DNA from: a virus
Taxonomy: Duplodnaviria > Caudoviricetes
Direction: 5' to 3' (one strand)
Virus record (IMG/VR): IMGVR_UViG_3300043414_000277
Coordinates: 1 to 30,337 of that record
Length of the DNA: 30,337 nt
In this document: one piece after another, positions 12,724-30,337 of the stretch
Numbering within the stretch: position 1 is the stretch's first letter
Layout of the letters: the number at the start of each line of letters is the position of its first letter
Translations under genes and position numbers: made by a program
The notes under the pieces: generated by a model
Database searches by the model: none
Seen by the model: the letters and a program-made list of their open reading frames with translations, nothing else
Told to the model about the DNA's origin: nothing

Positions 12724-12750
12724 AAAGAAAGCCCCGTGAGGGGCTTCTTA
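12722..12750. terminator. Bidirectional terminator between the convergent arms
   Basis: AAGCCCC-GTGA-GGGGCTT hairpin with an A-run on the left and CTT on the right. Confidence 0.8.
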
Positions 12751-13178: not shown

Positions 13179-13267
13179 TACCAGTGCCTCCAAGTATTAG
13201 CGATAATATGAAAGCAGGTGACCATCTCGATCACCCGCATGAGAACATTGATGTACTTAGATCTCAC
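13178..13267 (-). CDS. Small peptide (29 aa, not in ORF track)
   Basis: GTG start; (M)RSKYINVLMRVIEMVTCFHIIANTWRHW exactly fills the gap after nrdJ with overlaps at both ends. Confidence 0.45.
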   Translation of the reverse strand: MRSKYINVLMRVIEMVTCFHIIANTWRHW

Positions 13268-15158: not shown

Positions 15159-15412
15159 TTTTGGTTGTTCTCTAGTTCAATTAGTTTTTCAAGATAATGG
15201 ATTGCCTTTTGGAGGTCGGCTATACCGCCCTTGTCTCTCCAGCGGGACACGTATTTTACACAGTTTCCTTCAAAATAGCCAAGGTTATTTGCATAAATAT
15301 AGTCCCAAGGTTGAATTTCCTTCTCCTTGTAGTGCTTTCCACTTACTTGTTTAGCATTTGCACTACTTAACCCTGATTGATACTCTTCAATCTCTTTGAG
15401 TGTTGGTTTCAT
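15155..15412 (-). CDS. DUF3310 / T7 gp1.7-like putative nucleotide kinase
   Basis: HY...IQPWDYI...GNCVKYVSRW...DLQKAIHYL signature. Confidence 0.85.
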   Translation of the reverse strand: MKPTLKEIEEYQSGLSSANAKQVSGKHYKEKEIQPWDYIYANNLGYFEGNCVKYVSRWRDKGGIADLQKAIHYLEKLIELENNQK

Positions 15413-16172
15413 TGTGTGAGTACTTTCGTTCTAGGTATTCAATGGATAGGAACATCTCGTCAAAGTGTCCATCCTCTACTTCATTCATTACCAGTAAGCC
15501 CCTCCAATGACGGTTACTTAGCTGATCCATGTAATCTTCGTCGTGAAGATAGTAACTACCGGCAACAATAGCACAAATAGGCTTACCATCAGCACGTTTA
15601 CCATAAGCAATCTGTTTGCCTTGTTGATGACCTGCAACACACGACATATGGAGCTTAGAAATGATAGCAGCGGGAGAAGCAGCAGGACGGCCCATAGCAC
15701 CCACAGGCCAATAATGATTGAAGCCAACTCCGTTGATGAAAACTGGATGGAGAAACTCATGTACTTCCCAATCTTTCAAGTTGAGGTCATCATAGGTCAA
15801 TAGACCTTCAAGCATTGGATTGTTGTTCACAGCCCTTGTGAGGCGATGCTCATGGTTACCCTTCAAGAACACCATACGAGGCTTGTAAACCTTCTGCTTG
15901 GCCTCTTTCTGAGCCTTCTGGAGGTTGTGTAGAGGGTTCAGTAGGGTCAGCATCCCAGTGTTCCCTGCTGCAACGTCAGCTAGGTAGCGTTTACCTTCAA
16001 AGTACTTGCTACCTGCTTTGTCGTGGCTAGAGAGACTAGGGAAGTCCCAATGATCTCCTAAGTGAACTACGACATCTGGACGGTAATCACAAACTGCTTT
16101 CCCTGCCCATGTAAGGTGCTCTTGAGGAGCATCTGGTTTTGCTTGGGTATCTGGAATTACTAAGATACGCAT
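15387..16172 (-). CDS. Calcineurin-like metallophosphoesterase
   Basis: IPDTQ, HLGDHWD, KGNHE and GHQQ motifs. Confidence 0.85.
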   Translation of the reverse strand: MRILVIPDTQAKPDAPQEHLTWAGKAVCDYRPDVVVHLGDHWDFPSLSSHDKAGSKYFEGKRYLADVAAGNTGMLTLLNPLHNLQKAQKEAKQKVYKPRMVFLKGNHEHRLTRAVNNNPMLEGLLTYDDLNLKDWEVHEFLHPVFINGVGFNHYWPVGAMGRPAASPAAIISKLHMSCVAGHQQGKQIAYGKRADGKPICAIVAGSYYLHDEDYMDQLSNRHWRGLLVMNEVEDGHFDEMFLSIEYLERKYSHNETNTQRD

Positions 16173-16645
16173 TATTTAGGCAAGTCCAATTCGTAGACTT
16201 CAGGATAAGCTAAGAGAAGCTGCTGAAGCACTGCATCGTTCAAGCATCGTCCGTAACCTGCAAAAGGCTTTCCTGTACGATCATCAACTTCATTCAAAGG
16301 GAAGTTAACTGAGTAGTACACTTGCTCTTTGATGTTATATCCGTAATGATTGTTCATCTCGTCTAAGATGCGATCAAGAACGTCCATCCAAGTACTGTCG
16401 TGAGCTTCAACAATGAATGTGTGTCTCACAGGTTGTTTTTCCCCTTCAATGTCAATCCACTCATGGCTGTACATTTCAAACGCCCAATAATCCTCATCCA
16501 TGATTGTCTCTGTTTCTTCTACAAACTCGTACTTAGTCGTAGTCAATTCATGCCATTTGTTCTTTAAGTACTGAAACATAGTCATAGGTTCCTTTTTCGT
16601 TGGTTGATTGTTGATGTTGTGAAAGTATTCTTCAAGCTCCGTCAT
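16172..16645 (-). CDS. Hypothetical protein
   Basis: Acidic ORF; start at 16645 (SD GAGGT) or 16585 (SD AAAGGA). Confidence 0.65.
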   Translation of the reverse strand: MTELEEYFHNINNQPTKKEPMTMFQYLKNKWHELTTTKYEFVEETETIMDEDYWAFEMYSHEWIDIEGEKQPVRHTFIVEAHDSTWMDVLDRILDEMNNHYGYNIKEQVYYSVNFPLNEVDDRTGKPFAGYGRCLNDAVLQQLLLAYPEVYELDLPK

Positions 16646-16820
16646 CAATGACCTCACTGTCGTAGTCTGTATCATCTAGATACTTCTTACCTGCTTCAAT
16701 GCCTTGCTTCAAAGCTGTGATGATACCTAAGTTAAGAAGTGCGTGGCGTTCCTCATCGTTCATGTCGAACGTATAAGTTGCGCTGCCGTCTTCATGTTCC
16801 TTGCGTAATGTAACTACCAT
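16632..16820 (-). CDS. Hypothetical protein
   Basis: Start ATG 16820 with SD AAAGGT; EHEDGSATYTFD motif. Confidence 0.65.
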   Translation of the reverse strand: MVVTLRKEHEDGSATYTFDMNDEERHALLNLGIITALKQGIEAGKKYLDDTDYDSEVIDDGA

Positions 16821-17247
16821 CTGATACCTTTCTACGTCTTTCAACGATCCAATCGTGGGGGATTAACTTGTCAGAGTACATATAGCCATTTTTAACACAC
16901 CAATCACCATAGGTTGTACGTGATCCTTTGTGTAGCTTTTGTTTGCTATTTGAGAACACGAAACGAATGTCTAAGTTGGGATGCTGACGTTTGACTAAGA
17001 TGTGCTTCTGACGATCTAGAGCTGTGAATAAACCCTTAGTCTCAATGATGATACCGTTGTCAAGCACGAAGTCAGGTGTGTACTGGTGTTCACTCGCTGG
17101 CTTGATGTACTTAACTTTGGTCTTCTCATACGTGAAAGGGATACCCGCTTCAATGAGTGTATTAGCAACCTTTTCTTCCAAGCCGCTACGCCACCCATGT
17201 TTCATCGCATTAGCCCTGATGTTACTGGTTGTCTTACGAGTTACCAT
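16792..17247 (-). CDS. T7 endonuclease I-like Holliday junction resolvase
   Basis: RSGLEEKVA, YTPDFVL, IIIETKG, DRQKH and DIRFVF motifs as in T7 gp3. Confidence 0.92.
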   Translation of the reverse strand: MVTRKTTSNIRANAMKHGWRSGLEEKVANTLIEAGIPFTYEKTKVKYIKPASEHQYTPDFVLDNGIIIETKGLFTALDRQKHILVKRQHPNLDIRFVFSNSKQKLHKGSRTTYGDWCVKNGYMYSDKLIPHDWIVERRRKVSDGSYITQGT

Positions 17248-17530
17248 TTACTTTTGTTCTCTCATACTGATGCAACAGAGCACCGAAAGCATCTACAAAG
17301 ATCTCATCGTGATTAGTATGTCCCATAGCGAACATAATAGCGTGGACGAGTTCATGGCAGAATGTCTGCTCAGTGAAGTTCTTATTCATACCTGATCGAA
17401 GATGAATGATCTGAGTAGCACAATCACACTTACCATACTCAGATAACTCCTCTACGAACTTGACTTGCCACTGGCATCCAACAAGGTAGAAACTAGAGGG
17501 CACATTTGGTTTGATGTTCTTCGGAGCCAT
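17234..17530 (-). CDS. Small zincin-like (HExxH) protein
   Basis: TFCHELVHAI motif plus downstream HDE. Confidence 0.65.
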   Translation of the reverse strand: MAPKNIKPNVPSSFYLVGCQWQVKFVEELSEYGKCDCATQIIHLRSGMNKNFTEQTFCHELVHAIMFAMGHTNHDEIFVDAFGALLHQYERTKVNGNS

Positions 17531-18177
17531 AGAAGGTTTAAGTTTTCATCGACACGAAGTTGATTACCATCGTAAGCTTTGAGACAAGCATCATAGTATT
17601 CCTTTTCAGTTTTACAATCCTGTAGCAGCTTTGCAGCCTTTACAGGGCCAATGCCTTTCAAGCCAATGATGTTGTCAATACGATCCCCTGTGAGCACCTG
17701 AGTGAATAAGTTACGAAGACCTTGCTCCTCAGTAACGTAGTATTCCTCATGCTTCACAAAGTTGTAGTGCCAACCAGCGACTTGATCTAGGTCTTTGTCA
17801 ATGGAGACAATCCATCCGCCCGTCTTAGTTGCCTCAATAGCCACTGCATCGTCAGCCTCTTGTCCTTCAACCAGTTCTGCCCCTAGGCGCTGGAGATGGG
17901 TACGAATAGCTGCGTAATGCACTGGCTTCTTAGCATCCTTTCTGTTCCCTTTGTAAGGCTCAGTAACTGCTATGTCATTGCGAAAGTTACTACGACCTGT
18001 GATGTACGCTTTGTAATCATCGCACTTCAGGTTATCGTAAACAATCTCATGGATCAAAGTAGTCACACGAGCCAAACAGATAGCTTCATCAACGTCTTCA
18101 GATGCAAACCCAACGCGGTAAGTAATCAAATCGGCGTCAATGATGGCTAACTTAGGACGATCCTCAGAGTGCGTCAT
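17452..18177 (-). CDS. 5'-3' exonuclease (T7 gp6-like)
   Basis: IIDAD, YKGNR, EADDAV, DKDL and GDRIDNIIGLKGIGPVKA motifs; start 18177 with SD GAGGA. Confidence 0.9.
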   Translation of the reverse strand: MTHSEDRPKLAIIDADLITYRVGFASEDVDEAICLARVTTLIHEIVYDNLKCDDYKAYITGRSNFRNDIAVTEPYKGNRKDAKKPVHYAAIRTHLQRLGAELVEGQEADDAVAIEATKTGGWIVSIDKDLDQVAGWHYNFVKHEEYYVTEEQGLRNLFTQVLTGDRIDNIIGLKGIGPVKAAKLLQDCKTEKEYYDACLKAYDGNQLRVDENLNLLWLRRTSNQMCPLVSTLLDASGKSSS

Positions 18178-18583
18178 CGTCCTCTTCAACAGTTTCTGTA
18201 GGCGTGTAAGTCACTACCTCAGTCACCATCAACTTCTTGATCGTAGGTGCTAGGCCATGCTTCGCTGACATACGGTGAGTGTACGCTGTGAGCACTGCTA
18301 CGCACTTGGAGCCGTTACCGAGAGCCTTAACGTCAACTTCTTTCATGGAATCATCTGTGGGATTGAACAAGTACTTGCTCTTAGCCACAATGAAGTTACC
18401 TTGTGACTCTTTGTTCTTTACTTTGATGCCTAAGCCTGTGAGCTTTGCTGCATCGTCATCACTGATGTTACCGATGGTGCATTCGTAACGATCATTGTCT
18501 TCGTTAAATGCTTTGTTGAATTCAGCCATGTACTTCGACCAAAACAACTCACCGCTAATCTTTACTGGTTTCAAATCTGACAT
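18164..18583 (-). CDS. Single-stranded DNA-binding protein (gp2.5-like)
   Basis: LGNGSK motif, acidic C-terminal tail EEDDDAL; position in the replication module. Confidence 0.7.
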   Translation of the reverse strand: MSDLKPVKISGELFWSKYMAEFNKAFNEDNDRYECTIGNISDDDAAKLTGLGIKVKNKESQGNFIVAKSKYLFNPTDDSMKEVDVKALGNGSKCVAVLTAYTHRMSAKHGLAPTIKKLMVTEVVTYTPTETVEEDDDAL

Positions 18584-18602
18584 ATATCATTTCCTTTTTA
18601 AG

Positions 18603-18788
18603 TTATTGAAGGTAACTACCTTCTTTGCGAGAAAGATTCTCGGCTTCATCCTCAATGTACGCTAGTGCCGCTGAGAGCACTAAGTATACATCAAGAATAT
18701 CCAGATCATCGCTGTGCAAAAGCAAGAAAGAATCATCGCTAATGTTCAACATGATCTGAGATTTCAGTTTATCTGTTCTGTCTATCAA
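18603..18788 (-). CDS. Hypothetical protein
   Basis: ATGA coupling to the polymerase stop. Confidence 0.6.
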   Translation of the reverse strand: MIDRTDKLKSQIMLNISDDSFLLLHSDDLDILDVYLVLSAALAYIEDEAENLSRKEGSYLQ

Positions 18789-20518
18789 TGGGTTTCCCTC
18801 CAGTTAGACCCAACCTTGTATTCCCCATCGAGAGGGCATCGTAGATTATACGCTAACCCCGCTTCTCTTATCGATTGTACACCAGCTTTACCAACTAGGT
18901 CAGCAATGTCTGCTTTACATTCTATTTGCCACTCATCGTGGACATTGACGACGAACTTAGCATCCCATTTGTTGCACTTTATTGTATCCGCTAAGATACA
19001 CAAAGCCTTCTTCATGACGATAGCACCGGCCCCTTGAAGCAAGCTATTGACTGCCGCATGTTCAGAGCGAACCCATATCTTGCGACCATCAAGCCCCGGT
19101 ACATAGCCCTCGCACGCATATGCGGATACTTTATTACGTAGACGCTGCAACGCGGGAGTCCCTTTAAGAAAGGCATCGATAAGTTTTTGACCAGCGGCAC
19201 TACTACCACCGACAATCGATCCAATCTTCGCAGGACCCGCCCCGTATAGAAACGCATATATGAACGTCTTTGCTTGGTCGCGTGTTTGTAAACCGGCTGC
19301 TTTCTGATTAACCGTGTGGACATCCGTGCCCTCTTTAGACGATCCCTCACAGACTGTTTTGACATACTCTTTATCCTTCATGTAATGAGCTAACATACGC
19401 AGCTCTAAGCCACTAGCGTCACATCCAACTAGGACGTTACCTTCCTCAACTGTCCAACACTGACGACACTCAGGGCCATAGGGTGAGCCTGAGTTAGGGA
19501 TCTGTGCCATGTTAGGCTTCATGTGCGTCATGCGTCCCGTTACAGCCCCGTTTGTGATCACCCTACCGTGTACCCTGCCGTCCTTACCTACAACTTCTAA
19601 CCACGATTCAATCTGAGCTATGCGTTTACCTAGCATCATGTACTCAGCGATGATGGCTGCTATGGGGTACTTCAAACCCATCAGCACTGCTTCATCAACG
19701 ATAGCCTGACCTTGTGGGTAGTTAGCTGTAGGCTCGGTGAACTTCTTAGGTTTCCATCCTAGTCCAATGAGCTTCTCAGCTATTTGTTGTCTAGAAGCTG
19801 GATTGAATACCACCACTTCAGGTTTGAGGATCTTCCCTGTCTTTTTAGAGATGCGCTCAACCTCATACGGTGGATAGAGATCTTGCATTTTGTCATTGAT
19901 GGCACTCATCTTCCCCTTGAGTTCAGATAGTAGACAAGTAGCGTGAACTACATCGAGCTTGAATCCATTCTTTTCCTGCTTATTTATGATAGCTGCTACT
20001 TGGTGTTCAAGTTCAATGCTTTCTTGAGAGAAGTTTTTATCTTCAACACAAGTTTCCAGATGAGTAAATAGATTCCGTAAAACGCTAACATCGCGTAGGC
20101 AATAATGCTCAAGCAAAGCATCAACGGGCGCATCAAAACACTCACCAGAATAAGCCTCTTCACGGTTCATCATCCACTGCCACGTTGCCTTGTAGTCCAG
20201 CTTTGCTACCCCTAGCGTTTTGCCCCATGCGTCCAAGCTGTGACCGTTCTCTCTCGTTGGCTCTAGTAGCCTTGACACTACGAGTGTGTCGTATGCTTGC
20301 CTCAGTCCAATCTTTGTCTTCCAGAGCCTGTTTAAGATCGGAAAGTCGAATGATAGACCGTTCTGGGCTGCGATCAACGTAGCGTCCTTTAAGTAATCCC
20401 AGAGTCCTGTTGCTGCTTTCCATTTACGTACTTCTCCTGTGTCAATGTCTTGTGTCACACATAGATGTATAACATCATGCGCCATGTTAGTCTCAATGTC
20501 GAGAGCAATGCGTTTCAT
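18785..20518 (-). CDS. polA: Family A DNA polymerase with 3'-5' exonuclease (T7 gp5-like)
   Basis: ExoI LDIET, ExoII NGLSFD, ExoIII YCLRD; motif A DASGLELR, motif B RDQAKTFIYAFLYG, motif C VHDE. Confidence 0.95.
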   Translation of the reverse strand: MKRIALDIETNMAHDVIHLCVTQDIDTGEVRKWKAATGLWDYLKDATLIAAQNGLSFDFPILNRLWKTKIGLRQAYDTLVVSRLLEPTRENGHSLDAWGKTLGVAKLDYKATWQWMMNREEAYSGECFDAPVDALLEHYCLRDVSVLRNLFTHLETCVEDKNFSQESIELEHQVAAIINKQEKNGFKLDVVHATCLLSELKGKMSAINDKMQDLYPPYEVERISKKTGKILKPEVVVFNPASRQQIAEKLIGLGWKPKKFTEPTANYPQGQAIVDEAVLMGLKYPIAAIIAEYMMLGKRIAQIESWLEVVGKDGRVHGRVITNGAVTGRMTHMKPNMAQIPNSGSPYGPECRQCWTVEEGNVLVGCDASGLELRMLAHYMKDKEYVKTVCEGSSKEGTDVHTVNQKAAGLQTRDQAKTFIYAFLYGAGPAKIGSIVGGSSAAGQKLIDAFLKGTPALQRLRNKVSAYACEGYVPGLDGRKIWVRSEHAAVNSLLQGAGAIVMKKALCILADTIKCNKWDAKFVVNVHDEWQIECKADIADLVGKAGVQSIREAGLAYNLRCPLDGEYKVGSNWRETH

Positions 20519-21279
20519 TTTAATTCTTGTTCAAGCCTAGTGTTTAACTTTTTCCAAGCAATTGCTGCACACAATGGGACTTGTCCGTTTCCAATGGCTT
20601 TAAGTCTGTCCACCCAATAGGCCATAGCATCAGCCCTTCGCTGAAAGTAGGATGTGGATAGCATTGTCCGTGTAACTGGAACTCCAACTTGAATACGTTT
20701 GGTAGGACTCTGTTGAATCCCTTCGGACGTTTCTGAGTCACCGTGTGTCCGTTGAAGTCTCTTGATGTTGGAGTGGGCAACAAGCCAGAATCGATCTCTT
20801 TTGTGCTGTGCGCCAACGGATCCTGCTGATAACACACCCCACTCCGCATCGTACCCCATCGAGGCCAGATCTTCAAGGACAACTTCAAGTCCTCGTCGAG
20901 GAAGCAAAGGGGAGTTTTCTGCAAAAACGTAAGTTGGTTGGACTTCTCCGATGATTCGAGCCATGTGTTTCCACATACTTGATCGTTCTCCTGTGATACC
21001 TTCTCCTTTTCCTGCTGAACTAATGTCTTGGCAAGGGAAGCCTCCAGATACAACGTCAACAATTCCTTTCCAAGGTTTTCCATCAAAGGTTTGAACGTCA
21101 TCCCAGATTGGGAAAGGCGAGAGAAGTCCGTCATTTTGTCGGGCGACAAGTATGCTTGCGGGATAGGGTTCCCATTCAACGGCGCAAACTGTGTTCCATC
21201 CGAGCAATTTTCCTCCGAGAATGCCTCCACCTGCTCCTGCAAATAAAGAGAGTTCATTAAGGCTTTGCTGATTAACCAT
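20515..21279 (-). CDS. DNA cytosine-C5 methyltransferase, main (alpha) polypeptide
   Basis: Motif I LFAGAGG, IV GGFPCQ, VI FAENS, VIII HKRDRFW, X RLKAIGNGQV; no motif IX in this frame; likely start ATG 21279. Confidence 0.9.
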   Translation of the reverse strand: MVNQQSLNELSLFAGAGGGILGGKLLGWNTVCAVEWEPYPASILVARQNDGLLSPFPIWDDVQTFDGKPWKGIVDVVSGGFPCQDISSAGKGEGITGERSSMWKHMARIIGEVQPTYVFAENSPLLPRRGLEVVLEDLASMGYDAEWGVLSAGSVGAQHKRDRFWLVAHSNIKRLQRTHGDSETSEGIQQSPTKRIQVGVPVTRTMLSTSYFQRRADAMAYWVDRLKAIGNGQVPLCAAIAWKKLNTRLEQELK

Positions 21280-21284
21280 GACAT
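20544..21284 (-). CDS. Overlapping-frame methyltransferase beta polypeptide carrying motif IX
   Basis: 246-codon open alternate frame on the same strand; LLPTPT and HPTFSEGLMLWPIGWTD (motif IX-like); architecture as in M.EcoHK31I. Confidence 0.75.
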   Translation of the reverse strand: MSWLISKALMNSLYLQEQVEAFSEENCSDGTQFAPLNGNPIPQAYLSPDKMTDFSRLSQSGMTFKPLMENLGKELLTLYLEASLAKTLVQQEKEKVSQENDQVCGNTWLESSEKSNQLTFLQKTPLCFLDEDLKLSLKIWPRWGTMRSGVCYQQDPLAHSTKEIDSGLLPTPTSRDFNGHTVTQKRPKGFNRVLPNVFKLEFQLHGQCYPHPTFSEGLMLWPIGWTDLKPLETDKSHCVQQLLGKS

Positions 21285-21293
21285 TTTGTACCT

Positions 21294-21440
21294 TCACTTT
21301 AGATTTAAGAATAAGCCGATCTGGGCAAACGAGTATCCTATCCACATGATACCAGCACCCATGTCACCCTTGAGCCATTGTAGTGTCCCAACAATAGCGT
21401 AGCCAATGCCGATAGTCCCTACGATAATCATCTCAATCAT
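21294..21440 (-). CDS. Small two-TM membrane protein (48 aa, not in ORF track)
   Basis: Hand-translated MIEMIIVGTIGIGYAIVGTLQWLKGDMGAGIMWIGYSFAQIGLFLNLK; SD GAGGAG. Confidence 0.7.
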   Translation of the reverse strand: MIEMIIVGTIGIGYAIVGTLQWLKGDMGAGIMWIGYSFAQIGLFLNLK

Positions 21441-21607
21441 GTGATCTCCTCAAATGTAGGGTGCTGTAATTGACGAGCATAAAAATGAGCACGTTCATAG
21501 GCGTCATCGTGAATAAAACAAGCTTCGTTACGCCAATTAAACTGCCACCAACATTTGCTTTGAACCCACCAAACCTTGTTTGGATCCATCCATAGTCGGA
21601 TTCTCAT
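21437..21607 (-). CDS. Trp-rich hypothetical protein (56 aa, not in ORF track)
   Basis: Hand-translated MRIRLWMDPNKVWWVQSKCWWQFNWRNEACF...; ATGA overlaps at both ends; SD GGAGG. Confidence 0.65.
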   Translation of the reverse strand: MRIRLWMDPNKVWWVQSKCWWQFNWRNEACFIHDDAYERAHFYARQLQHPTFEEIT

Positions 21608-23220
21608 AGTGCCTCCAGAGTAACTTCAACCATACGTCCAGTGTTCATGTCGTACTTCAATGAGCAAGCGGGGCCAGTTAAACCGTTGTAGCGATTCTTA
21701 GCCACTGCTACCTTAGTAGTGTGACGTATCTCAGGGTCTTGGCTCATGGAGTTACGCTCCAAGGTGATAACAGCATCAGACAACTGAGCAATAGCACCTG
21801 AGCCTCGTAGTTGAGACAACGATACAGCCTCACCGTCCTCATGTCCCTTATTCGATGTGCTAGGACGCTTCAGGTGCGATACGCAGATCAAGGTAATACC
21901 AGTCTCCTGCACCAATGTACGAAGACGAGTCATCAAGACATCAATAGACTTACGCTCATCGTTACCATCCATACCAGAGACAACAAGAGAAATATGGTCG
22001 AGAAAAACCACGCGACAATCACAGGCACGAGCCATGTATCGAATGCGATTAAGGACGTTGTCAATAGCCAGAGAGCCAAAATGGTCAAACAAGAATACAC
22101 GATTAGTACCGAGAGTAGCATCGAAAGCCTCCTTCAATTCTTGTTCAGTGACTTCTGTGTCTGGCAGATGAAGTTTTTTGTTTGCGTGTAAGGACATAAT
22201 TGACCTTGCGGTTTTTCGCACTGACTCCTCCAAGAACATTCCTCCAATATTCCACTTTGTAGTTTCGAGTATTCGATAGAGGATTTCACGGAGAAACTGG
22301 GACTTACCAAGACCACTTCCAGCCGTGACGGTGATGAGTTCCGCTGATCGCAAACCATACAAGAGATCGTTGAGTCCTTTGAAGGGGTAGAAGGCTTCTG
22401 CAACGGGTTCAGGTGTAGATACGCTGTCCCACAACGTAGAGGCTTGGATGATGCCGTCTGGTACGTAACTCTCAGCTCTCCACCATTGGTTAACGTATTC
22501 AGTTGACTTTCCCTCAGATAGATAGTCGCTTGCATCCTTGTACCCTTTCAAATGTTTAACTATTTTAACCTTATTCCCGAACAACTCAGCAACTTCCCTA
22601 GCCGCCTTCTGTCCGGGTTCATCACCATCGAAGCAGATCACGATAGTCTCGAAGCTATCTAGATACTCATACTGAGCCTTGCAGTCTTTAACAGCCGCTG
22701 CAGCCCCGTTACGGATGCTCACAGTAGGCCACTTGCTGCCTGTCATCTGATACGAAGCCAATGCGTCTAGCTCACCCTCGACAATGGTAATGTACTTACC
22801 CTCTTTTTGAAACATTGATTGCCCGAACAGAGTAGCCTTGTTGAAGTTCCCTGCGATGGAGAATGTTTTGTTCTCTACTGTGCGAATCTTCTCAGCTACC
22901 TTCAAGCCTGACTCATCAAAGTAAGGATAGTAGTGTTTACCTGTCTCCTGTGTCACACCGAAGAACTCGCATGTATCTTTTAGGATACCCCTGTCAACTA
23001 TGGCCTTCACTTCCCCTTGTGTCTTCATCTGAAATACCTTTGTTATGTGTCGTTTTTCTACAACATTATCGACATGATCGCCTGATGTGTACACATGGCA
23101 GACATGACAGTATTGATGACCATCATCGTACAAGGACGAGCCATCTGAGCTGCCACAAGCCTCACATGGGCAATGCTTGATGAACTTAGAAGCAACCTTC
23201 AAAGCGTTGTTAAATGTCAC
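21604..23220 (-). CDS. Primase-helicase (T7 gp4-like)
   Basis: Zn domain CEACGSSD...CHVC; TOPRIM EGELDAL and FDGDEPG; Walker A AGSGLGKS, FLDHIS, SHLKR, LRGSGAIAQLSD, KNRYNG. Confidence 0.95.
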   Translation of the reverse strand: MTFNNALKVASKFIKHCPCEACGSSDGSSLYDDGHQYCHVCHVYTSGDHVDNVVEKRHITKVFQMKTQGEVKAIVDRGILKDTCEFFGVTQETGKHYYPYFDESGLKVAEKIRTVENKTFSIAGNFNKATLFGQSMFQKEGKYITIVEGELDALASYQMTGSKWPTVSIRNGAAAAVKDCKAQYEYLDSFETIVICFDGDEPGQKAAREVAELFGNKVKIVKHLKGYKDASDYLSEGKSTEYVNQWWRAESYVPDGIIQASTLWDSVSTPEPVAEAFYPFKGLNDLLYGLRSAELITVTAGSGLGKSQFLREILYRILETTKWNIGGMFLEESVRKTARSIMSLHANKKLHLPDTEVTEQELKEAFDATLGTNRVFLFDHFGSLAIDNVLNRIRYMARACDCRVVFLDHISLVVSGMDGNDERKSIDVLMTRLRTLVQETGITLICVSHLKRPSTSNKGHEDGEAVSLSQLRGSGAIAQLSDAVITLERNSMSQDPEIRHTTKVAVAKNRYNGLTGPACSLKYDMNTGRMVEVTLEAL

Positions 23221-23374
23221 TTTCTAGCTCCGGTATTGCACCGCAGTAGTCACACTTCGCGTAGTTCCAATGAGGCGCTGAGTACATAGGTCCACCACAT
23301 ACGTCACAAGTCCACTCTTGATCGTCATCATTGTGTCGCTCATCATTGAAGCACTCATCATCATCTAATTCCAT
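23210..23374 (-). CDS. Small acidic zinc-ribbon protein (54 aa, not in ORF track)
   Basis: Hand-translated MELDDDECFNDERHNDDDQEWTCDVCGGPMYSAPHWNYAKCDYCGAIPELESDI with two CxxC pairs; SD AAGGAG. Confidence 0.7.
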   Translation of the reverse strand: MELDDDECFNDERHNDDDQEWTCDVCGGPMYSAPHWNYAKCDYCGAIPELESDI

Positions 23375-23534
23375 TTGGGAACTCCTTCTTTGGCAGATTC
23401 TGCCTGTTTAACCATTGTTCAAATTTAGCGTCTGTCTCACTAGGTAGCGGTCTCTTTTTCTTGTGATGAGAGCGCTTAGGCGACACTGGTTCCCACTTGG
23501 GCCACGGTGCATTAGGTGCAAGTACTGTTTTCAT
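23361..23534 (-). CDS. Hypothetical basic protein
   Basis: Start MKTVLAPNAPWP at 23534; SD AAAGGT. Confidence 0.55.
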   Translation of the reverse strand: MKTVLAPNAPWPKWEPVSPKRSHHKKKRPLPSETDAKFEQWLNRQNLPKKEFPNGIR

Positions 23535-23594
23535 TTGAGGGCCACCTTTATCAGAGTTAAGACAAACACACATAGTGCCATGATCATGATTGTG

Positions 23595-23822
23595 TCACCA
23601 TGCCTTCTCAAATATTGCATTCTTTAAATCCCTATTAACTTTATCCCATCCGTACAAGACAATAAGCTCAACGAATTCGTGAAGTGTGTGATGATAATGT
23701 GCTTCTTCTTGCATCATTATCTGTTCTTCATGCTCATTAAAGGCTTGATCCGGTCTTGTTGCGTTGCTCATTAGAGTCTCATCTCTAACTTCTTGATCAA
23801 CTTCGACATTAGAATCTTTCAT
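23595..23822 (-). CDS. Hypothetical acidic protein
   Basis: SD AAGGGGA; 75 aa. Confidence 0.6.
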   Translation of the reverse strand: MKDSNVEVDQEVRDETLMSNATRPDQAFNEHEEQIMMQEEAHYHHTLHEFVELIVLYGWDKVNRDLKNAIFEKAW

Positions 23823-23894
23823 GTTATCCCCTTAATACTTTAAAGTAGTTTTAATGATATAGACAATAAAGTAGTATTTTACTTTAATGTACCT

Positions 23895-24170
23895 TTAATG
23901 TTCTTCATGTTCATCATCATAGTCTCTATAGCTCTCTATAGTATCTATAATGAGGTCATGAAAACCTGTAGAATCCCCTGAGTCCAGATTGTCATCTTCA
24001 TCGGTGTCAAAGTCCTGTTCTGTCATCAATGATCGATTGTCAATTGTGGGGATGATTGTCTTCACATCTTCAAAACAAACTTTACATAAGTCCAAGAACT
24101 GAAATGTAATGGCATGTTTACGTGTCGCTTCAAAATCAGATAGCAGACGATCGCAGTTTACGCAGTGCAT
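23895..24170 (-). CDS. Zinc-finger protein with acidic tail
   Basis: CVNC...DLCKVC; SD GAGG. Confidence 0.7.
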   Translation of the reverse strand: MHCVNCDRLLSDFEATRKHAITFQFLDLCKVCFEDVKTIIPTIDNRSLMTEQDFDTDEDDNLDSGDSTGFHDLIIDTIESYRDYDDEHEEH

Positions 24171-24228
24171 TTATAGCCTCTTTCATGGTTCACCCTAGTC
24201 AGGGTATTGATTTGTTAAAATAATGCCT

Positions 24229-24363
24229 TTAAAGCCCCATTAAAGGGCTCTCAGGCACATTGTCGAGTTGTTCATCTAACCACTTCCTATGGTCTTCAGG
24301 TGTCCAAGGTGTCAAAGGGTTATCTTCAGACGGGAAAGGCCACGTGTGTTGTATTTTTACCAC
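24229..24363 (-). CDS. Small hypothetical protein (44 aa, not in ORF track)
   Basis: GTG start with SD GGAGG; (M)VKIQHTWPFPSEDNPLTPWTPEDHRKWLDEQLDNVPESPLMGL. Confidence 0.5.
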   Translation of the reverse strand: MVKIQHTWPFPSEDNPLTPWTPEDHRKWLDEQLDNVPESPLMGL

Positions 24364-24412
24364 AAGTCCTCCGCGATGATGTAGTCCACAATGTAGCCAA
24401 TGATAATGATTG

Positions 24413-24655
24413 TCATTTAGGACTCCACTTTAAAGATGGAAAGCCCTCTAAAGGGTGTTTACCTTCAAAATAGGCATCTTGCAACATAGTCGAACCCTCA
24501 TCTTCAAGATCGACATAAATGGTCATATCCGCGTAATTGTGCCTCTCATAGGCAATGTCATAGGCAATAGCCTCCGATTCAGCCTCTACAGTGTAGTCAC
24601 TATGGTAATTCCCTCTAGTGTCTTCAACGTATACATTATATGTTTTTAGCGTCAT
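24413..24655 (-). CDS. Hypothetical early protein
   Basis: ATGA coupling; YTVEAESEAIA motif. Confidence 0.65.
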   Translation of the reverse strand: MTLKTYNVYVEDTRGNYHSDYTVEAESEAIAYDIAYERHNYADMTIYVDLEDEGSTMLQDAYFEGKHPLEGFPSLKWSPK

Positions 24656-24906
24656 TCTTTCACCCCTAAGTCAAAAGTTAAATTGTCGATTGAATCACAA
24701 AATTCGTCCCATTCTTTAAAGAATTCGAGACCGTCATCGTCAGTAGCGCATTCGTTGATAAATGGTGAGTACTTTTGCATTACCTTTTTAGTCTGAGACA
24801 ATAGGAACAGCAGTTCGTCCCGTGTAGAGACTAATTCGTCACACAATGGGTTTCCCTCAGCCCACAATCGTCGTTCAAGGCTTATAAATTCTTGATTGTT
24901 TAGCAT
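24652..24906 (-). CDS. Hypothetical early protein
   Basis: SD GGAG; in a tightly packed operon. Confidence 0.65.
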   Translation of the reverse strand: MLNNQEFISLERRLWAEGNPLCDELVSTRDELLFLLSQTKKVMQKYSPFINECATDDDGLEFFKEWDEFCDSIDNLTFDLGVKE

Positions 24907-25097
24907 GGTTTAGTCTCCAATTTAACAGAACAGATTAAAAGACTAGGGTATTTTTCCCTATCGCGATAGGCAAATGCATAATTTACAATCTTGCGTATGC
25001 TGCCACGCCTTGAAAGTAAGCCCATAGCAACAGCAGACGTTTTATACCCTTCTTTGCGGCCCACAATGGCCCCAGTACAGTCCCGAATGATATACAT
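24900..25097 (-). CDS. Hypothetical early protein
   Basis: SD AAGGGG; MYIIRDCTG...VG...GY. Confidence 0.6.
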   Translation of the reverse strand: MYIIRDCTGAIVGRKEGYKTSAVAMGLLSRRGSIRKIVNYAFAYRDREKYPSLLICSVKLETKPC

Positions 25098-25100
25098 GGT

Positions 25101-25475
25101 TTATCCCCTTATGTGAATGATTTCAAAGTGATCACGCATGAACGTCTGCGCATCCAATTCGTCACGCGCTACTAAGCCCCCTAAAATGGCATTGTATACG
25201 TCACGCTTTGAGTGATAATAGCCCGCGTGTTCGTCTCCATCACGGAAATTGCGCCATTGATTTTGCCGGTAATTGCGTTCAATGTCACGTTTAAGTGAAT
25301 GCGTTCGATAATGTGCAATAAACCCGTGCAAATTGTAATGTGCGATAAAGCCTGAGCATAGGTATAAATACTTATAACCCGTGCTGTTAAGCTTTTCAAT
25401 ATCAGTGCATGCCTTAAGCACGTTTGAGACAATTAAGGCCTTCTGACGTGCTGTTAGTGGTTCAATATTAGCCAT
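25101..25475 (-). CDS. Hypothetical early protein
   Basis: SD AAAGGA within the ACTTGCAAAGG leader motif. Confidence 0.7.
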   Translation of the reverse strand: MANIEPLTARQKALIVSNVLKACTDIEKLNSTGYKYLYLCSGFIAHYNLHGFIAHYRTHSLKRDIERNYRQNQWRNFRDGDEHAGYYHSKRDVYNAILGGLVARDELDAQTFMRDHFEIIHIRG

Positions 25476-25569
25476 TTGCGTATCCTTTGCAAGTAATGAT
25501 GCGACAGTGCATCCATAAAGGCCCGTTTAAAGGCCTTTAAAGCGGCATTGTAGGCGCTAATTTACTGAG

Positions 25570-25716
25570 TCAATACCGTGCTAACCATTCAGCCTCGATT
25601 AGCCCGTATGATCCCGATTGTTTTAATTCAGCGACGAAACTTTGATATTCCCAAGATGAAACCTTGTAAATTTCAATATGCTTTGACTTTAAATTGTGAG
25701 CTTGTATGCGATACAT
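25570..25716 (-). CDS. Hypothetical early protein
   Basis: Start MYRIQAHN at 25716; SD AAGGGA. Confidence 0.55.
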   Translation of the reverse strand: MYRIQAHNLKSKHIEIYKVSSWEYQSFVAELKQSGSYGLIEAEWLARY

Positions 25717-25726
25717 GGTGATCCCT

Positions 25727-26374
25727 TCATGCTGCTTTGATGATGCGAATAACTTTGGCCATTTTGACTCCGTGCGCTGCATAGGCAATTAATGGCACTG
25801 ACTTATCCCAACAAGCACGGCAACCTGAGCACTTACCGCCATTCTCGTATGCACGGCAAAGCTCCATTAAATCGGTTGCATCGTCACTTGTTGGGACAAT
25901 GACGGATCCGTGCAAGCCTTCGACGTATTGACCCGTCACTGAGTCACTTGAAAAGCGAACCGATACATTGTCGAGGCTTTGCATTGTAGTTAAGACAGTG
26001 CGAAACTTAGGGAATTTATGCATACGAGTTGGCAACCAGTGCTTGCACCATGGTGTCCGCTGCATAACCTCTAGAATTTTCTCAGCGAGTGCTGCTGAGT
26101 ATACATCCCCTGAATCGAACCAGCGGAAATAACGACTATCTTGCAGAGCTTGCACCATATCGTCGCACCATTCTAGGCGCTGCCAGTCAAGCTTGTTGTG
26201 AGCGCGTGGAGCTTTGACGTTTGGATAATTGTAGTTGCCTGTCGTGGCATAGCATCCTTTGCATGCGTCGACTAAAACACCATTTTCAATTGATGCTGGA
26301 CACGTTTCGAGTGCTTGTAAGCTCCATGACTTGATACCGTCGAGCTTTGATGTAACGCTGATTTTTACTGACAT
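25727..26374 (-). CDS. Gene product 88 (GP88)-family Cys-rich protein
   Basis: TCP...CKGCYA, FRWFDSGD, HWLPTR, VRFS and C-terminal C...CSGCRAC; start ATG 26374. Confidence 0.75.
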   Translation of the reverse strand: MSVKISVTSKLDGIKSWSLQALETCPASIENGVLVDACKGCYATTGNYNYPNVKAPRAHNKLDWQRLEWCDDMVQALQDSRYFRWFDSGDVYSAALAEKILEVMQRTPWCKHWLPTRMHKFPKFRTVLTTMQSLDNVSVRFSSDSVTGQYVEGLHGSVIVPTSDDATDLMELCRAYENGGKCSGCRACWDKSVPLIAYAAHGVKMAKVIRIIKAA

Positions 26375-26407
26375 AGTGCTGAACCTTTGCAAGTGAGTGA
26401 GTGTTTA

Positions 26408-26485
26408 TTATAGTGTCAACCAGATAACCAAAATGGCCACTGCATAAAGACAATACAGAATTTTATCAATGAGTGTATTTTGCAT
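26408..26485 (-). CDS. Small single-TM peptide (25 aa, not in ORF track)
   Basis: MQNTLIDKILYCLYAVAILVIWLTL; SD GGAG. Confidence 0.5.
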   Translation of the reverse strand: MQNTLIDKILYCLYAVAILVIWLTL

Positions 26486-26497
26486 GATGTGCTCCAA

Positions 26498-26692
26498 TTA
26501 AGTAAGATCAACTACAAAATTACAATCTTCGTAACTGACGCTGATAACGTCACCAGCAGTTAAAAAGTCAACGATCGCTATAAAACCAGCAGCGTCGATA
26601 TTGAGTTGAGTATCGGCCCAAGTTGCTACGCTGAAGAGGCTGCATGGTGCGGATGCTTCGATGTGTGTACGAATGTGCTCTAAGTTACTCAT
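26498..26692 (-). CDS. First early gene, hypothetical
   Basis: Start ATG 26692 after the AAAGGA SD; immediately downstream of the sigma54 promoter. Confidence 0.6.
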   Translation of the reverse strand: MSNLEHIRTHIEASAPCSLFSVATWADTQLNIDAAGFIAIVDFLTAGDVISVSYEDCNFVVDLT

Positions 26693-26744
26693 GGTGTGCA
26701 TATCCTTTGCAAGTTGATTGATTGTCGATTGACCCATTACATAT

Positions 26745-26761
26745 TGCAAGCGCCGTGCCAG
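26745..26761 (-). promoter_or_regulatory. Sigma54 (-24/-12) promoter for the early operon
   Basis: Minus strand reads CTGGCACGGCGCTTGCA, an exact match to YTGGCACGRNNNTTGCW with GG-N10-GC spacing; intergenic and correctly oriented. Confidence 0.8.
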
Positions 26762-26859
26762 CCCTGATTTAGTAGTACTCTTAGGTTACATTTATGGTGG
26801 CATTGTAGTCCTCTGGTGTACAGATCATGTAAACTGTAACGTATAGTAGTCATTTATGA

Positions 26860-26919
26860 TGCACCATTATGATACAATTTGTGCACTGGTGCACTGTTTT
26901 GGTTCACTTTTGTGCACCA
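26860..26919. promoter_or_regulatory. NtrC-like enhancer sites
   Basis: TGCACCATTATGATACA (26860-26876) and TGCACTGTTTTGGTTCA (26890-26906) versus TGCACCA-N3-TGGTGCA; extra half-sites at 26887 and 26913. Confidence 0.55.
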
Positions 26920-26931
26920 AGTTGTTTAGTC

Positions 26932-27088
26932 TGTGGATAACTACATACTTATGCACAGTTTAGTAACAGCCATGTGTGGATAACTTTGGAGGTAGGTGTT
27001 TACCCTTAGAACTTTAGTGTCGTTGGAGTAGTACTTTATAGGTGCTTCATAGTCCCTTACACCTAACCTGTGGAGAACCTGTGGATAA
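26932..27088. promoter_or_regulatory. DnaA-box cluster
   Basis: TGTGGATAA at 26932, 26975 and 27080; TTATGCACA at 26949; TGTGGAGAA (1 mismatch) at 27069. Confidence 0.75.
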
Positions 27089-27091
27089 CTT

Positions 27092-27111
27092 TACTGACTG
27101 ACTGGTCAGTA
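27092..27111. repeat. Inverted repeat, operator-like
   Basis: TACTGAC-N6-GTCAGTA. Confidence 0.45.
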
Positions 27112-27418
27112 GCATGTAAGGGTTACTACGTAGAACCTTTGGAGTAACTTGATAGGGGGGGAGGGGTATGCTTGTGTGTTTACTTTTGTGGGAGCTTCCT
27201 AAGTACACAAAAAAGACTAATTAAGAAAGTAGACATCATGACTAAAAAGTCTAATGAAATCAAAGAAGTTATGGCTTTAATTGGGGACAGGTTAGTCCAT
27301 AGGAGATAATCTGTGCACAGGAGCCTTGCATAGGTCACTTGTGAGACCATGAATGTGGACACAAGAGGTCTATGTAGTCACATAAGTGACAGAGACTATA
27401 AATAAATACAAATAAAGC

Positions 27419-27446
27419 TTGACAATCTAGAAAAGTACTATATAAT
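27419..27446 (+). promoter_or_regulatory. Sigma70 promoter upstream of the terminase operon
   Basis: TTGACA-16 bp-TATAAT with an A-rich UP-like tract upstream. Confidence 0.8.
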
Positions 27447-27707
27447 TCTCTATGAAGGTTATCCTTCCAAGAACTCAAATGAAGATCTAAGTAGACGGGC
27501 TACTTAGTTAATACGGGAAGTTCTTAATGAGTTACTTCAATGGACAACTTCCTAAGTTGTACACAGGAGGTAAATAAAGTAGTAATTACTTCATTAAGAT
27601 TCTTGTCTTAAATGTTAAATTAGATAGTTACTCTAGAGTACTCAGAGTAGCTTTCCCCTATTGTTATTTATATTACTATACATAGTACATCTCCACTAAG
27701 GACAAAG

Positions 27708-28121
27708 ATGGAACAACAAAGCACAGAGTTAAAAGTCAGAGGACGAGGTAGACCCAAGAAGGGTGAGATAGTAGCTAAGAAGTCTAAGAACAGAGGTACT
27801 CTAGGGCGTCCTAAGGGTGACAAGGCTATCATCGATGAGTACAAAGCTAGGATGCTTAACTCACCCAAGTCAGCTAAGGTCTTAGAGACTATCCTTAATG
27901 CTGCCTTGAATGATGACCATAAGAACCAAGCAGCTGCATGGAAGCTAGTCGTAGATCGTATTATGCCCGTGAGTGCATTTGAGCAAACTAAGCAAGGATC
28001 AGGCACACCTCAGATCTCAATTAACATATCAGGTCTTACAGCTCCTACTGTAGATGCTAATGAAGAAGTAGTCTATGACATTCAAGACGTAGAAGTGAAA
28101 GATACTGATGACGAGTCTTAA
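27708..28121 (+). CDS. terS: Terminase small subunit
   Basis: Directly upstream of and overlapping terL; basic RGRGRPKK/GRPKG N-terminus, helical core, acidic tail. Confidence 0.7.
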   Translation: MEQQSTELKVRGRGRPKKGEIVAKKSKNRGTLGRPKGDKAIIDEYKARMLNSPKSAKVLETILNAALNDDHKNQAAAWKLVVDRIMPVSAFEQTKQGSGTPQISINISGLTAPTVDANEEVVYDIQDVEVKDTDDES

Positions 28122-29367
28122 CTTTGAACTCCTGAAGTGGCAACAAGAGGTCTTCAAGTCCACTAAGCGATTCAAGGTAGTCGCTGCTGGTCGAAGGTGT
28201 GGTAAGAGTAGGCTATCAGCTGTAACGCTCCTCATAGAGGCTCTGAACTGTCCTGAAGGGTCAGCTGTGATGTACATAGCTCCTACCCTAGGACAAGCTA
28301 GAACTATTATGTGGGACTTACTGAATGACTTAGGTAGACCAGTCATCAAGTCCTCTCACGTTAACAACTTAGAAATTACCTTAATCAATGGACGTAAAAT
28401 CCTCGTTCGAGGCGCTGATAACCCTGATAGTCTCCGTGGTGTTTCTCTTACATATGTTGTCCTAGACGAGTGTGCCTTCGTTAAAGAAGATACTTGGCAA
28501 AAGATCATTCGAGCTTCTCTGTCTGACAAAAAAGGTAGAGCCTTGTTTATCTCTACACCTAGTGGACGTAACTGGTTCTATGATCTGTACAACCTAGGTC
28601 AAGAAGAGACAGACGAAGAGTGGAAGTCATGGCACTTTACCACCCAAGATAACGAGACTATCGATCCTAAAGAGATTGAAGCTGCTAAGAGAACTCTAAG
28701 CTCCTTTGCCTTCAAGCAGGAATACTTGTCTAGCTTCGATACTGCCGGTAGTGACTTATTTAAAGAAGAATGGTTAAAGTACAAAGATGAACCTCAATAC
28801 GGTGACTACGTTATCGCGATTGACTTGGCGGGCTTTGAAGATGTGGCTAAGAACGCGGGAGCCTCTAAGAAGCGCTTGGATGAATCAGCGATCACTGTCT
28901 GCAAGATTCTAGACAATGGGGATTGGTGGGTCAAAAAGATCATCCACGGACGTTGGGACATCAGGGAGACTGCCTCCAAGATCCTCCTAGCCGTTAAGGA
29001 GTACCAACCAGTAGCTGTGGGTATTGAGCGAGGAGCCTTGAAGAATGCCGTGATGCACTACCTTCAAGACTTGATGAGGAAGAACAATGTCTATACCCAC
29101 ATCCATGATCTGACTCACGGTAACAAGAAGAAGACAGATAGGGTCGTATGGGCCTTACAAGGTCGTTTCGAGCATGGACGTATCAGCTTGAACGAGGATG
29201 AGGATTGGAAACAGTTTGAGGATCAGTTCATCATGTTCCCTGCTACAGGCGTACACGATGACTTGATTGACTCCTTAGCGTATGTGGATCAGTTATGTAT
29301 GACCAACTATAGTCAAGACTACGACGAAGATGAACACGAAGTTTTAGACATAATATCGGGATATTGA
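28108..29367 (+). CDS. terL: Terminase large subunit
   Basis: Walker A AGRRCGKS, Walker B VVLDE, STPSG, nuclease motifs IAIDLA and HDDLIDSL. Confidence 0.95.
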   Translation: MTSLNFELLKWQQEVFKSTKRFKVVAAGRRCGKSRLSAVTLLIEALNCPEGSAVMYIAPTLGQARTIMWDLLNDLGRPVIKSSHVNNLEITLINGRKILVRGADNPDSLRGVSLTYVVLDECAFVKEDTWQKIIRASLSDKKGRALFISTPSGRNWFYDLYNLGQEETDEEWKSWHFTTQDNETIDPKEIEAAKRTLSSFAFKQEYLSSFDTAGSDLFKEEWLKYKDEPQYGDYVIAIDLAGFEDVAKNAGASKKRLDESAITVCKILDNGDWWVKKIIHGRWDIRETASKILLAVKEYQPVAVGIERGALKNAVMHYLQDLMRKNNVYTHIHDLTHGNKKKTDRVVWALQGRFEHGRISLNEDEDWKQFEDQFIMFPATGVHDDLIDSLAYVDQLCMTNYSQDYDEDEHEVLDIISGY

Positions 29368-29368
29368 T

Positions 29369-30337
29369 ATGGCAGAAGACTTAACACAACCCTATTTCGG
29401 TAATCCTCTTGTTACAAGACAAGGCGCTCAAGCTCGTCAGTTAGCCCAACAACGTAGCGCTGAGTCTTTACCTGATCCGCGCACGTATGGTTTTGTTAGT
29501 GGCTTATTTGGAACTTCTCCTGAACAATTAGGCATGAGTGTCTTGTCTCCTAACACTGCTCCCGCTAAAGAAGCTGCTTATTATGGGTATCAGGCTGGAA
29601 ACGCTGCTCAAATCGCTCCTGCATTAAAAGGGTTGTTTAATCTCTCAAAAGGAATGACAGCAGGTCAAACTGTTGCCGCTGAAGCCGAGCCTCTAATGGG
29701 CTATCATCGAACAACTACTCCTTTTGAAGGAGACTTTGTAAACACTAAAAATAAACTAGGTGTTTCTTTTGCAGGGGATCGTGGGTTTTATTTCTCGCCT
29801 AAATTAGACGACCCAGATTCACAGATTTTTGGTAAGTATGTCATTGCGGCTGATGTAAACGTAAAAAATCCTGCTCCGGTGTACCAAGTTAATTTTGGAA
29901 TGGATAATTATAAGACACCTCGAAGTGTTGTACCTGTAGATAGTAAATGGTTAAAAGAAAACCCTGAAGCTATAAAAGAAGGTGGGATAGCCATTGCTGA
30001 CTCAGTTGAAGCTTTAATTGCAGGAAAAACAGCTGAAAGAGCAGGTTCATTTAAGGATTATGAACAACAAGTAATTAATGCAGCTAAGAATAAAAAGCTG
30101 TTTGCACTTATAGATCCAGAAAAACTATATGATAGACAAGTAAAGCTTTTAGAAAGTAGAGGTTTTGATGGTTTTAACTACGTTCGACCCGAAACAGCCA
30201 CAAGTTCAATGCCTTCCCAAATAGTAGCGTTTAGGCCAGAACAGATTAAACGTAAGGCTGCAGGTAAGCAAGAGCAAATAACTGAACAGCTTACCAATCC
30301 CACATATCAAGACCCTATGGGTTTTACAATCAAATAA
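29369..30337 (+). CDS. Protein with ADP-ribosyltransferase-like (ART-PolyVal-type) domain
   Basis: GYHRT...F...GDRGFYFS...VNVKNP...GFDG...QIVAFRPEQIK pattern after an A/G/Q-rich N-terminus. Confidence 0.6.
   Translation: MAEDLTQPYFGNPLVTRQGAQARQLAQQRSAESLPDPRTYGFVSGLFGTSPEQLGMSVLSPNTAPAKEAAYYGYQAGNAAQIAPALKGLFNLSKGMTAGQTVAAEAEPLMGYHRTTTPFEGDFVNTKNKLGVSFAGDRGFYFSPKLDDPDSQIFGKYVIAADVNVKNPAPVYQVNFGMDNYKTPRSVVPVDSKWLKENPEAIKEGGIAIADSVEALIAGKTAERAGSFKDYEQQVINAAKNKKLFALIDPEKLYDRQVKLLESRGFDGFNYVRPETATSSMPSQIVAFRPEQIKRKAAGKQEQITEQLTNPTYQDPMGFTIK

Follow-up and report, generated by a model that had tools for sequence, protein, structure and literature searches.

How does a phage in which neither an RNA polymerase nor a transcriptional activator can be recognised begin to express its replication genes? 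The question is raised by a stretch of 30,337 nucleotides (hereafter the window), which comprises approx. 81% of the complete phage genome. In the window, a 1-kb region without genes (26693-27707) separates two divergent gene arms. According to family searches of its ORFs, the leftward arm (12763-26692, minus strand, approx. 14 kb) is a replication arm that contains small ORFs and genes for a GP88-family protein, a T7-like primase/helicase, a DNA methyltransferase, a DNA polymerase, an exonuclease, an endonuclease, a phosphoesterase, and a ribonucleotide reductase. The rightward arm starts with a 137-aa ORF, which has no family match and is named terS from its position alone, and the gene for the terminase large subunit (27708-29367, plus strand). 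Capsid, tail, and lysis genes are encoded on the plus strand at the start of the window, and the two arms meet at a bidirectional terminator-like hairpin (12711-12747). Behind terL lies a 322-aa ORF (29369-30337, plus strand) with a weak match to ART-PolyVal (E 2.7e-5, under the curated cut-off); in three relatives listed, a portal gene is found there within approx. 1 kb. What appears to be a gap at 24190-24416 (minus strand) consists of two overlapping short ORFs (19 and approx. 45 aa), which are kept in relatives. No Rfam match was obtained across 23000-28200, no tRNA genes were found in the window or in three relatives, and no integrase families were detected by Pfam among the 93 ORFs of the window and three near-complete relatives.

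The leftward arm is headed by a sigma54 (RpoN) -24/-12 box, CTGGCACGGCGCTTGCA (26745-26761, minus strand), with GG at 26759-26758 and GC at 26747-26746, i.e., the GG-N10-GC arrangement of NtrC-dependent promoters of the glnAp2 type; the predicted +1 is 26734. The initial annotation had placed this box 52 bp ahead of the first early ATG, and indeed the interval between box and ATG (26692) is 52 bases. The ORF behind it (26498-26692, minus strand; 64 aa, no family) is preceded by an AAAGGA ribosome site, and in 33 of 48 related regions the first ATG with a ribosome site lies no more than 130 nt from the box. It is likely, judging from these sequence features, that the box is the promoter of the replication arm. 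The pattern TGGCAC-N5-TTGC occurs once in the window with no mismatches; with up to one mismatch it occurs four times, which is no excess over chance (shuffle mean 2.07; 10/100 shuffles reach four).

The sigma54 holoenzyme requires an AAA+ enhancer-binding protein. Upstream of the box, two 17-bp NtrC-type sites are found where they had first been described: a proximal site (26860-26876, centre -134) with two mismatches (12/14 positions; 15.2 bits with a glnA matrix) and a distal site (26890-26906, centre -164) with three mismatches (11/14; 14.2 bits), 30 bp apart. Both of the perfect half-sites reported with them are also present (TGCACCA, 26891-26885; TGGTGCA, 26919-26913). The latter is part of a weak third NtrC-type site (26913-26929, centre -187), a position that scores 2.1 bits in the window versus 4-11 bits in close relatives.

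Loose consensus counts for the sigma54 or the NtrC motif alone are weakly above chance in the window, and independent matrices were therefore built from host promoters. A host search among genome contigs gave six distant matches in assorted MAGs, and a protein atlas search gave no usable match. Three of the MAG matches were inspected (L081, L082, and L086); they carry no leftward sigma54 box, and two of them have less than 700 bp upstream. Burkholderiales was chosen as the comparison order because L086 pointed there, and the sampling covers that order alone. From 61 Burkholderiales genomes, 30 glnA upstream regions were taken, 29 of which were usable (sigma54 box and enough upstream sequence), as well as 29 pilin upstream regions, 22 of which were usable; the pilin locus of G024 was left out of the pilin set, and this genome was counted in genome tallies only. 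Unseeded palindrome searches yielded nGCACCAnnnTGGTGCn from the glnA regions and GTGACG-N5-CGTCAC from the pilin regions. In the accessible text of PMC8743547, the E. coli NtrC box (TGCACCAnnnTGGTGCA) is the same as the motif derived from Burkholderiales glnA; thus, the host cannot be named from a match to Burkholderiales glnA. When the glnA matrix was run over the 30-kb window, the -134 and -164 sites ranked first and second, and in 5000 exact dinucleotide shuffles of the upstream zone (175 bp) their summed score was not reached once, so that the matrix scan suggested in the initial annotation came out in favour of both sites. Their spacing of 30 bp compares with 30-31 bp in host glnA, where the enhancer centres of the promoters sampled lie at approx. 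-97/-127. As in the glnAp2 type, the boxes lie 80-200 bp upstream, and at least two of them share the same helical face.

Conservation was followed by means of the 137-aa ORF, which as a query has approx. 590 relatives in IMG/VR. The best 80 of these approx. 590 were used, 55 of which have at least 1,200 bases upstream; removal of four duplicates and of loci with fewer than 1,500 bases left 51 loci (window included). The conservation of GG-N10-GC among relatives, on which the first proposal had been made to depend, was found: a leftward sigma54 box occurs in the same place and orientation, 850-1,400 bases upstream, in 46 of the 51 loci, a 75-fold enrichment over the rest of the loci for a zone that was picked after the data were seen. 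Across 48 distinct anchored regions, GG and GC are constant by virtue of the anchoring, and the spacer varies. NtrC sites of at least 12 bits number 59 in 6,864 upstream-zone positions of these 48 loci versus 8 in 448,459 positions elsewhere (482-fold), and site spacings cluster at 20-21, 30, 41, and 52-53 bp, which are multiples of the helical turn. Helically phased NtrC-type sites are present in 41 of the 48 distinct promoter regions, and seven carry TGTC-N8-GACA instead; it should be noted that the relatives are kin and that such counts are not independent events. A set anchored on a conserved G-run (see below) comprises 51 distinct loci, with L024 dropped for its missing anchor. Here the box lies inside the zone in 45 loci and at its edge in L040 and L044, which gives 47 loci with a box. 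All 47 have an enhancer-type site: at least two NtrC sites in 32, one NtrC site in eight, and the alternative type in seven (with NtrC sites counted from 6 bits upwards). Among the four loci that lack the box, three have no enhancer site at all, and L056 has one. The box is thus not essential to the group, and a working unit, as read from these sequences, would be expected to lose box and enhancer together, as seen here.

In favour of the paired elements, an IMG/VR-wide search for a strict NtrC box combined with a sigma54 box gave 72 stretches, compared with 14 for a control in which the box spacing was shifted by one base; 28 of the 72 have a tblastn match to window proteins within 2.5 kb. 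Against a simple rule, in 10 of 13 more distant relatives checked, whose TerL is 52-61% identical, the terminase genes lie on the side that the matched box faces. Eight of the 48 close relatives have a second, rightward sigma54 box, back to back with the first and facing the G-run/terminase side (144-151 bp in L046, L066, L069, L070, L072, L074, and L076; 225 bp in L005). Many of the Burkholderiales glnA promoters (L091-L120) share a TGTGGCACAAT-like element at approx. -55 to -40 of the sigma54 start; by eye, such elements are also seen before the first ORF of the sigma54-free phages L029, L043, and L056.

The statement in the initial annotation that neither a phage RNA polymerase nor an enhancer-binding protein is visible has held: RNA polymerase families were found in none of the 47 window ORFs, and PF00158 was not detected in this approx. 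81% complete record. Furthermore, PF00158 was not found in five relatives, two of which are complete by terminal repeats, nor was HTH_8 found in those five. Among the unmatched ORFs of the three near-complete relatives, no RNA polymerase was found, and the single-subunit phage enzyme that defines Autographiviridae was thus detected in neither set of ORFs. In addition, Pfam searches of the 93 ORFs turned up neither sigma factor nor regulator families.

Taken together, the sequence elements (with their spacing, conservation, and joint loss) and the finding of no phage activator or RNA polymerase argue for a promoter run by the host. It appears that host NtrC~P at -134/-164 activates the host sigma54 RNA polymerase at 26734 and so starts the replication arm, a reading to which we assign a probability of roughly 0.6. 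NtrB phosphorylates NtrC when nitrogen is limiting. NtrC~P would then bind the -134 and -164 sites (and possibly -187), contact the closed complex by DNA looping, with no clear IHF site to assist, and open the promoter near 26734. The transcript would run via the small ORFs toward the primase, polymerase, and reductase genes; this presumes read-through over 14 kb, which is proposed because no other promoter above chance is found in the arm. Replication would thus start well only in cells in which the Ntr system is on. The main benefit may be a promoter class with strong activity in slow-growing, nutrient-poor hosts, and the consequence would be failure or delay in nitrogen-rich cells. The ntrC gene is present in the single Burkholderiales genome that was searched, a genome with no established link to the phage.

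The initial annotation had gone further and tied entry into the lytic programme to RpoN and NtrC. As regards the replication arm, this claim finds partial support, given that box and enhancer are conserved, phased, and lost together, that no phage activator or RNA polymerase is found, and that there is no conserved leftward sigma70 promoter. It does not extend to the whole programme: a consensus sigma70 promoter (TTGACA-16-TATAAT; 27419-27446, plus strand) faces the terminase/structural arm, and hence not all transcription needs NtrC. Rightward matches of at least 10/12 recur in 40 of the 48 loci, and their spacer is 16 bp in most cases. NtrC dependence is therefore argued here, from sequence, for the replication arm of most members and not for the entire lytic programme. 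Three features had escaped the initial annotation, namely the other enhancer in 7/48 relatives, the missing box in 4/51, and the sigma70 promoter that faces the terminase arm.

The main rival is that the promoter, although dependent on NtrC, is an accessory one that drives the first few small ORFs, with the replication genes transcribed from other promoters (by a phage-modified host RNA polymerase) and nitrogen merely tuning infection. Two hairpins within the arm (approx. 24222-24258 and 25485-25555, no shuffle control) fall inside its first 2.5 kb, and two weak terminator-like matches lie at 24804-24821 and 24944-24960. In one complete relative, the leftward arm itself contains a further sigma54 box, and four of the 51 relatives manage without the box altogether. 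In addition, Pseudomonas phage YuA, as described in the accessible text of 10.1101/2023.10.13.562163, combines sigma70-like, sigma54-like, and phage-specific promoters side by side. However, the 14-kb leftward arm of the window shows no internal sigma70 or sigma54 promoter above chance (two sigma70 matches, like the shuffles, which give 0-3), and the 93 ORFs mentioned above include no sigma factor or regulator family. Leftward sigma70 matches of at least 10/12 are found in 11 of 48 control regions, at scattered positions. An accessory role is somewhat unlikely, and host NtrC acting on the whole replication arm is preferred.

It is quite unlikely that the promoter, albeit functional, is opened by another activator, whether a host enhancer-binding protein that recognises a similar site or a phage protein missed by the family searches. 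Room for such a protein is left by the many small ORFs without a family and by the approx. one fifth of the genome that lies outside the window; nonetheless, no AAA+ activator was found in two complete relatives. With the glnA-derived matrix, the window sites score within the host range, and their spacing is that of the hosts, whereas the pilA-derived motif fails: its best score is -1.3 bits, and 49 of 60 shuffles are equally good, so that PilR was rejected as the activator of the window promoter. With the pilA matrix, no relative scores above 7.2 bits. An argument for other activators comes from seven relatives (L025, L027, L028, L030, L038, L050, and L054), in which the sigma54 box is kept and the NtrC boxes are replaced by TGTC-N8-GACA; a different enhancer implies that other activators can serve this promoter.

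The alternative sites occur three or four per locus, at approx. -150, -130, and -87, and perfect copies are found in all seven of these loci and in none of the 41 others. Nonetheless, L030 weakly passes the NtrC shuffle test (3/500), and a single NtrC-like site of at least 6 bits is found in a wider zone of both L028 and L030. In a terS tree of 48 rows, the enhancer-type label needs four changes (2-4 in bootstraps); the alternative-enhancer rows sit among NtrC-type rows, and the well-supported branches are also compatible with a single origin. On the host side, TGTC-N8-GACA followed by a sigma54 box was found in 17 of 201 Burkholderiales genomes versus none for the reversed control. Of the 18 host matches, seven lie ahead of N-methyl pilin genes, with two of the seven in one genome; a flagellar rod gene and an Rnf subunit gene follow one match each. 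No enhancer-binding protein gene was found in the three host stretches examined. The sites fit TGT-N10-ACA, which we take to be the NifA pattern. They differ from the pilA motif GTGACG-N5-CGTCAC learned from Burkholderiales, and they resemble GTCaNTAAAtTGAC, the consensus proposed for P. aeruginosa FleQ in PMC6120874, which in its accessible text itself calls the motif unreliable. The enhancer might thus be a swappable input, in that seven relatives would have kept the promoter and exchanged its NtrC boxes for TGTC-N8-GACA.

A further possibility, which we consider very unlikely, is that the sites act as a decoy or roadblock, i.e., that they capture sigma54 holoenzyme, NtrC, and DnaA, either upsetting host regulation or helping replication or packaging, and that no productive transcription follows. 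Indeed, DnaA boxes are interleaved with the enhancer, and in some relatives the rightward sigma54 box faces an ORF-free region. Moreover, eight other phages matched by the IMG/VR-wide pattern (L182, L188, L194, L212, L223, L226, L235, and L236) carry near-perfect NtrC and/or sigma54 boxes in tandem arrays, several of which adjoin terminase genes, and in those phages a decoy is possibly a better fit than a promoter. In the window, however, there is a single box in the correct orientation, 52 nt ahead of a ribosome site and ATG; the enhancer sites lie at working distance and phase, box and enhancer are lost together in relatives, and the arm has no other promoter. Finally, chance matches in an AT-rich intergenic region, to which the weak excess of loose single motifs in the window might point (10/100 shuffles for sigma54, two shuffles for NtrC), can be dismissed, as far as sequence permits, in view of the 0/5000 shuffles, the 482-fold and 75-fold positional enrichment in relatives, and the helical spacing.

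The gene-free region holds other elements in addition to the proposed NtrC-dependent promoter. Four matches to the DnaA-box consensus lie at 26932-26940, 26949-26957, 26975-26983, and 27080-27088. The strict form, TTATCCACA, occurs 69 times in a 380-bp zone of the 48 loci versus seven times elsewhere (237-fold), and at least one box is present in 34 of these loci. Relatives have up to seven DnaA boxes, which in L013, L055, L057, L061, L065, and L077 lie between enhancer and promoter. It is possible that the boxes beside the enhancer represent a host-DnaA-assisted origin or a cell-cycle input. An imperfect palindrome of the GTARTACW-N1-3-WGTAYTAC type (26772-26789, centre approx. -46) lies between enhancer and promoter and is found within three mismatches in 34 of 48 regions (shuffle mean 5.3); judging from its sequence, it could be a phage operator for some protein. 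A host counterpart of this palindrome was sought and rejected (6/151 Burkholderiales genomes, below control). As regards IHF, for which we assume the consensus WATCAANNNNTTR, the best match in the window has three mismatches. An IHF-assisted promoter of the glnHp2/nifH type was rejected, as up to two mismatches are found in 37 of 48 regions versus a shuffle mean of 35.4.

Further to the right, a conserved G-run (27155-27166, plus strand) lies 260-425 bp upstream of the sigma54 box in anchored loci. Of 26 contigs that end upstream of terS, two start inside this element, which on its sequence may be a candidate genome end or packaging signal; assembled contigs cannot, however, show genome ends. 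Over approx. 50 bases to its right, the G-run is followed by a conserved T-rich and A-rich stretch. Another palindrome, TGTKGT-N6-ACAACA, is found at 24347-24364 of the window, inside the early arm and in differing coding contexts, and at -106 and -222 in L002, L003, L008, L010, L017, L052, L058, and L067; in Burkholderiales it occurs in 7 of 121 genomes (control 0), beside unrelated genes. Sites resembling a Fur box, as we assume its consensus to be, are present in six of 51 control regions (L008, L029, L043, L061, L066, and L072), two of which lack a sigma54 box. At 24400-24420, an internal Fur-like box, which overlaps the start of a short ORF and is shared by 7 of 22 relatives, is not claimed.

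The promoter type as such is known. The unit shares with the glnAp2 type (E. coli and Burkholderiales glnA) the -24/-12 box, two 17-bp NtrC boxes approx. 30 bp apart, and the lack of a clear IHF site. It differs in that it heads DNA-replication genes, that its sites lie further out (-134/-164 vs. approx. -97/-127 in the sampled hosts), that it is mixed with DnaA boxes and the -46 palindrome, and that it is known from sequence alone. A full-text search, with most subscription papers outside its coverage, returned no phage promoter with NtrC enhancer sites; the accessible parts of PMC3184105, PMC12316311, and PMC5491218 contain nothing on phage enhancers, and that of PMC7693777 reports a doubtful phage sigma54-like factor. 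The setting in a phage replication arm was thus not found described.

Among cultured phages, no close relative was found by blastn or tblastn, and the best full-length match of TerL is 27%; the primase/helicase is 44-49% identical to pelagiphage, cyanopodovirus, and SIO1 proteins. Two sequencing runs, labelled freshwater metagenome, contain the full stretch and are possibly its source, hence non-independent; one contig matches 25500-27844 without a difference. GenBank MW202484 has its GP88 gene in common with the window, and no comparable cassette was seen by eye in the 1,450 bases inspected upstream. With RNA polymerase-less podoviruses of the LUZ24-like and SIO1-like types, the window phage shares a T7-like replication arm, arms that diverge beside the terminase genes, and reliance on host RNA polymerase. 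LUZ24 differs in that its promoters are mostly sigma70-like (62.5%, according to the accessible text of 10.1101/2023.10.13.562163), whereas a sigma54 box heads the replication arm in the window. Like the window phage, YuA has no RNA polymerase; it is lytic and uses host sigma54. Its sigma54-like promoter P015, one of 21 YuA start sites, has a start mapped by ONT-cappable-seq, and the main text names no enhancer or activator, the word "enhancer" having no occurrences in the part accessible (10.1101/2023.10.13.562163). Among 50,697 phage records, YuA gave no match to 24400-28200 of the window.

To our knowledge, nutrient control of lytic phage infection in natural waters is known mostly from correlations. 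Within this context, the 230-bp element would tie the onset of phage DNA replication directly to the host Ntr system. Since the NtrC box is identical in E. coli, the element is testable there, and the natural variants (NtrC type, alternative enhancer, and sigma54-free) are ready-made controls. We tentatively extend the reading to the group as a whole: in these approx. 590 contigs of uncultured lytic podoviruses, a host enhancer-binding protein may start the replication arm through an input that has been swapped (NtrC in the majority, an activator of the pilus/flagellum type in some, and no such input in a few), and together with the DnaA boxes this might allow the phage to sense the state of the host before commitment and to stall in nitrogen-rich cells. 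The finding suggests an isolation strategy, namely plating on nitrogen-limited hosts. If true, the extended reading would mean that lytic infection is gated by nutrients without any lysogeny genes, and it could account for the absence of a cultured member of the group on rich media.
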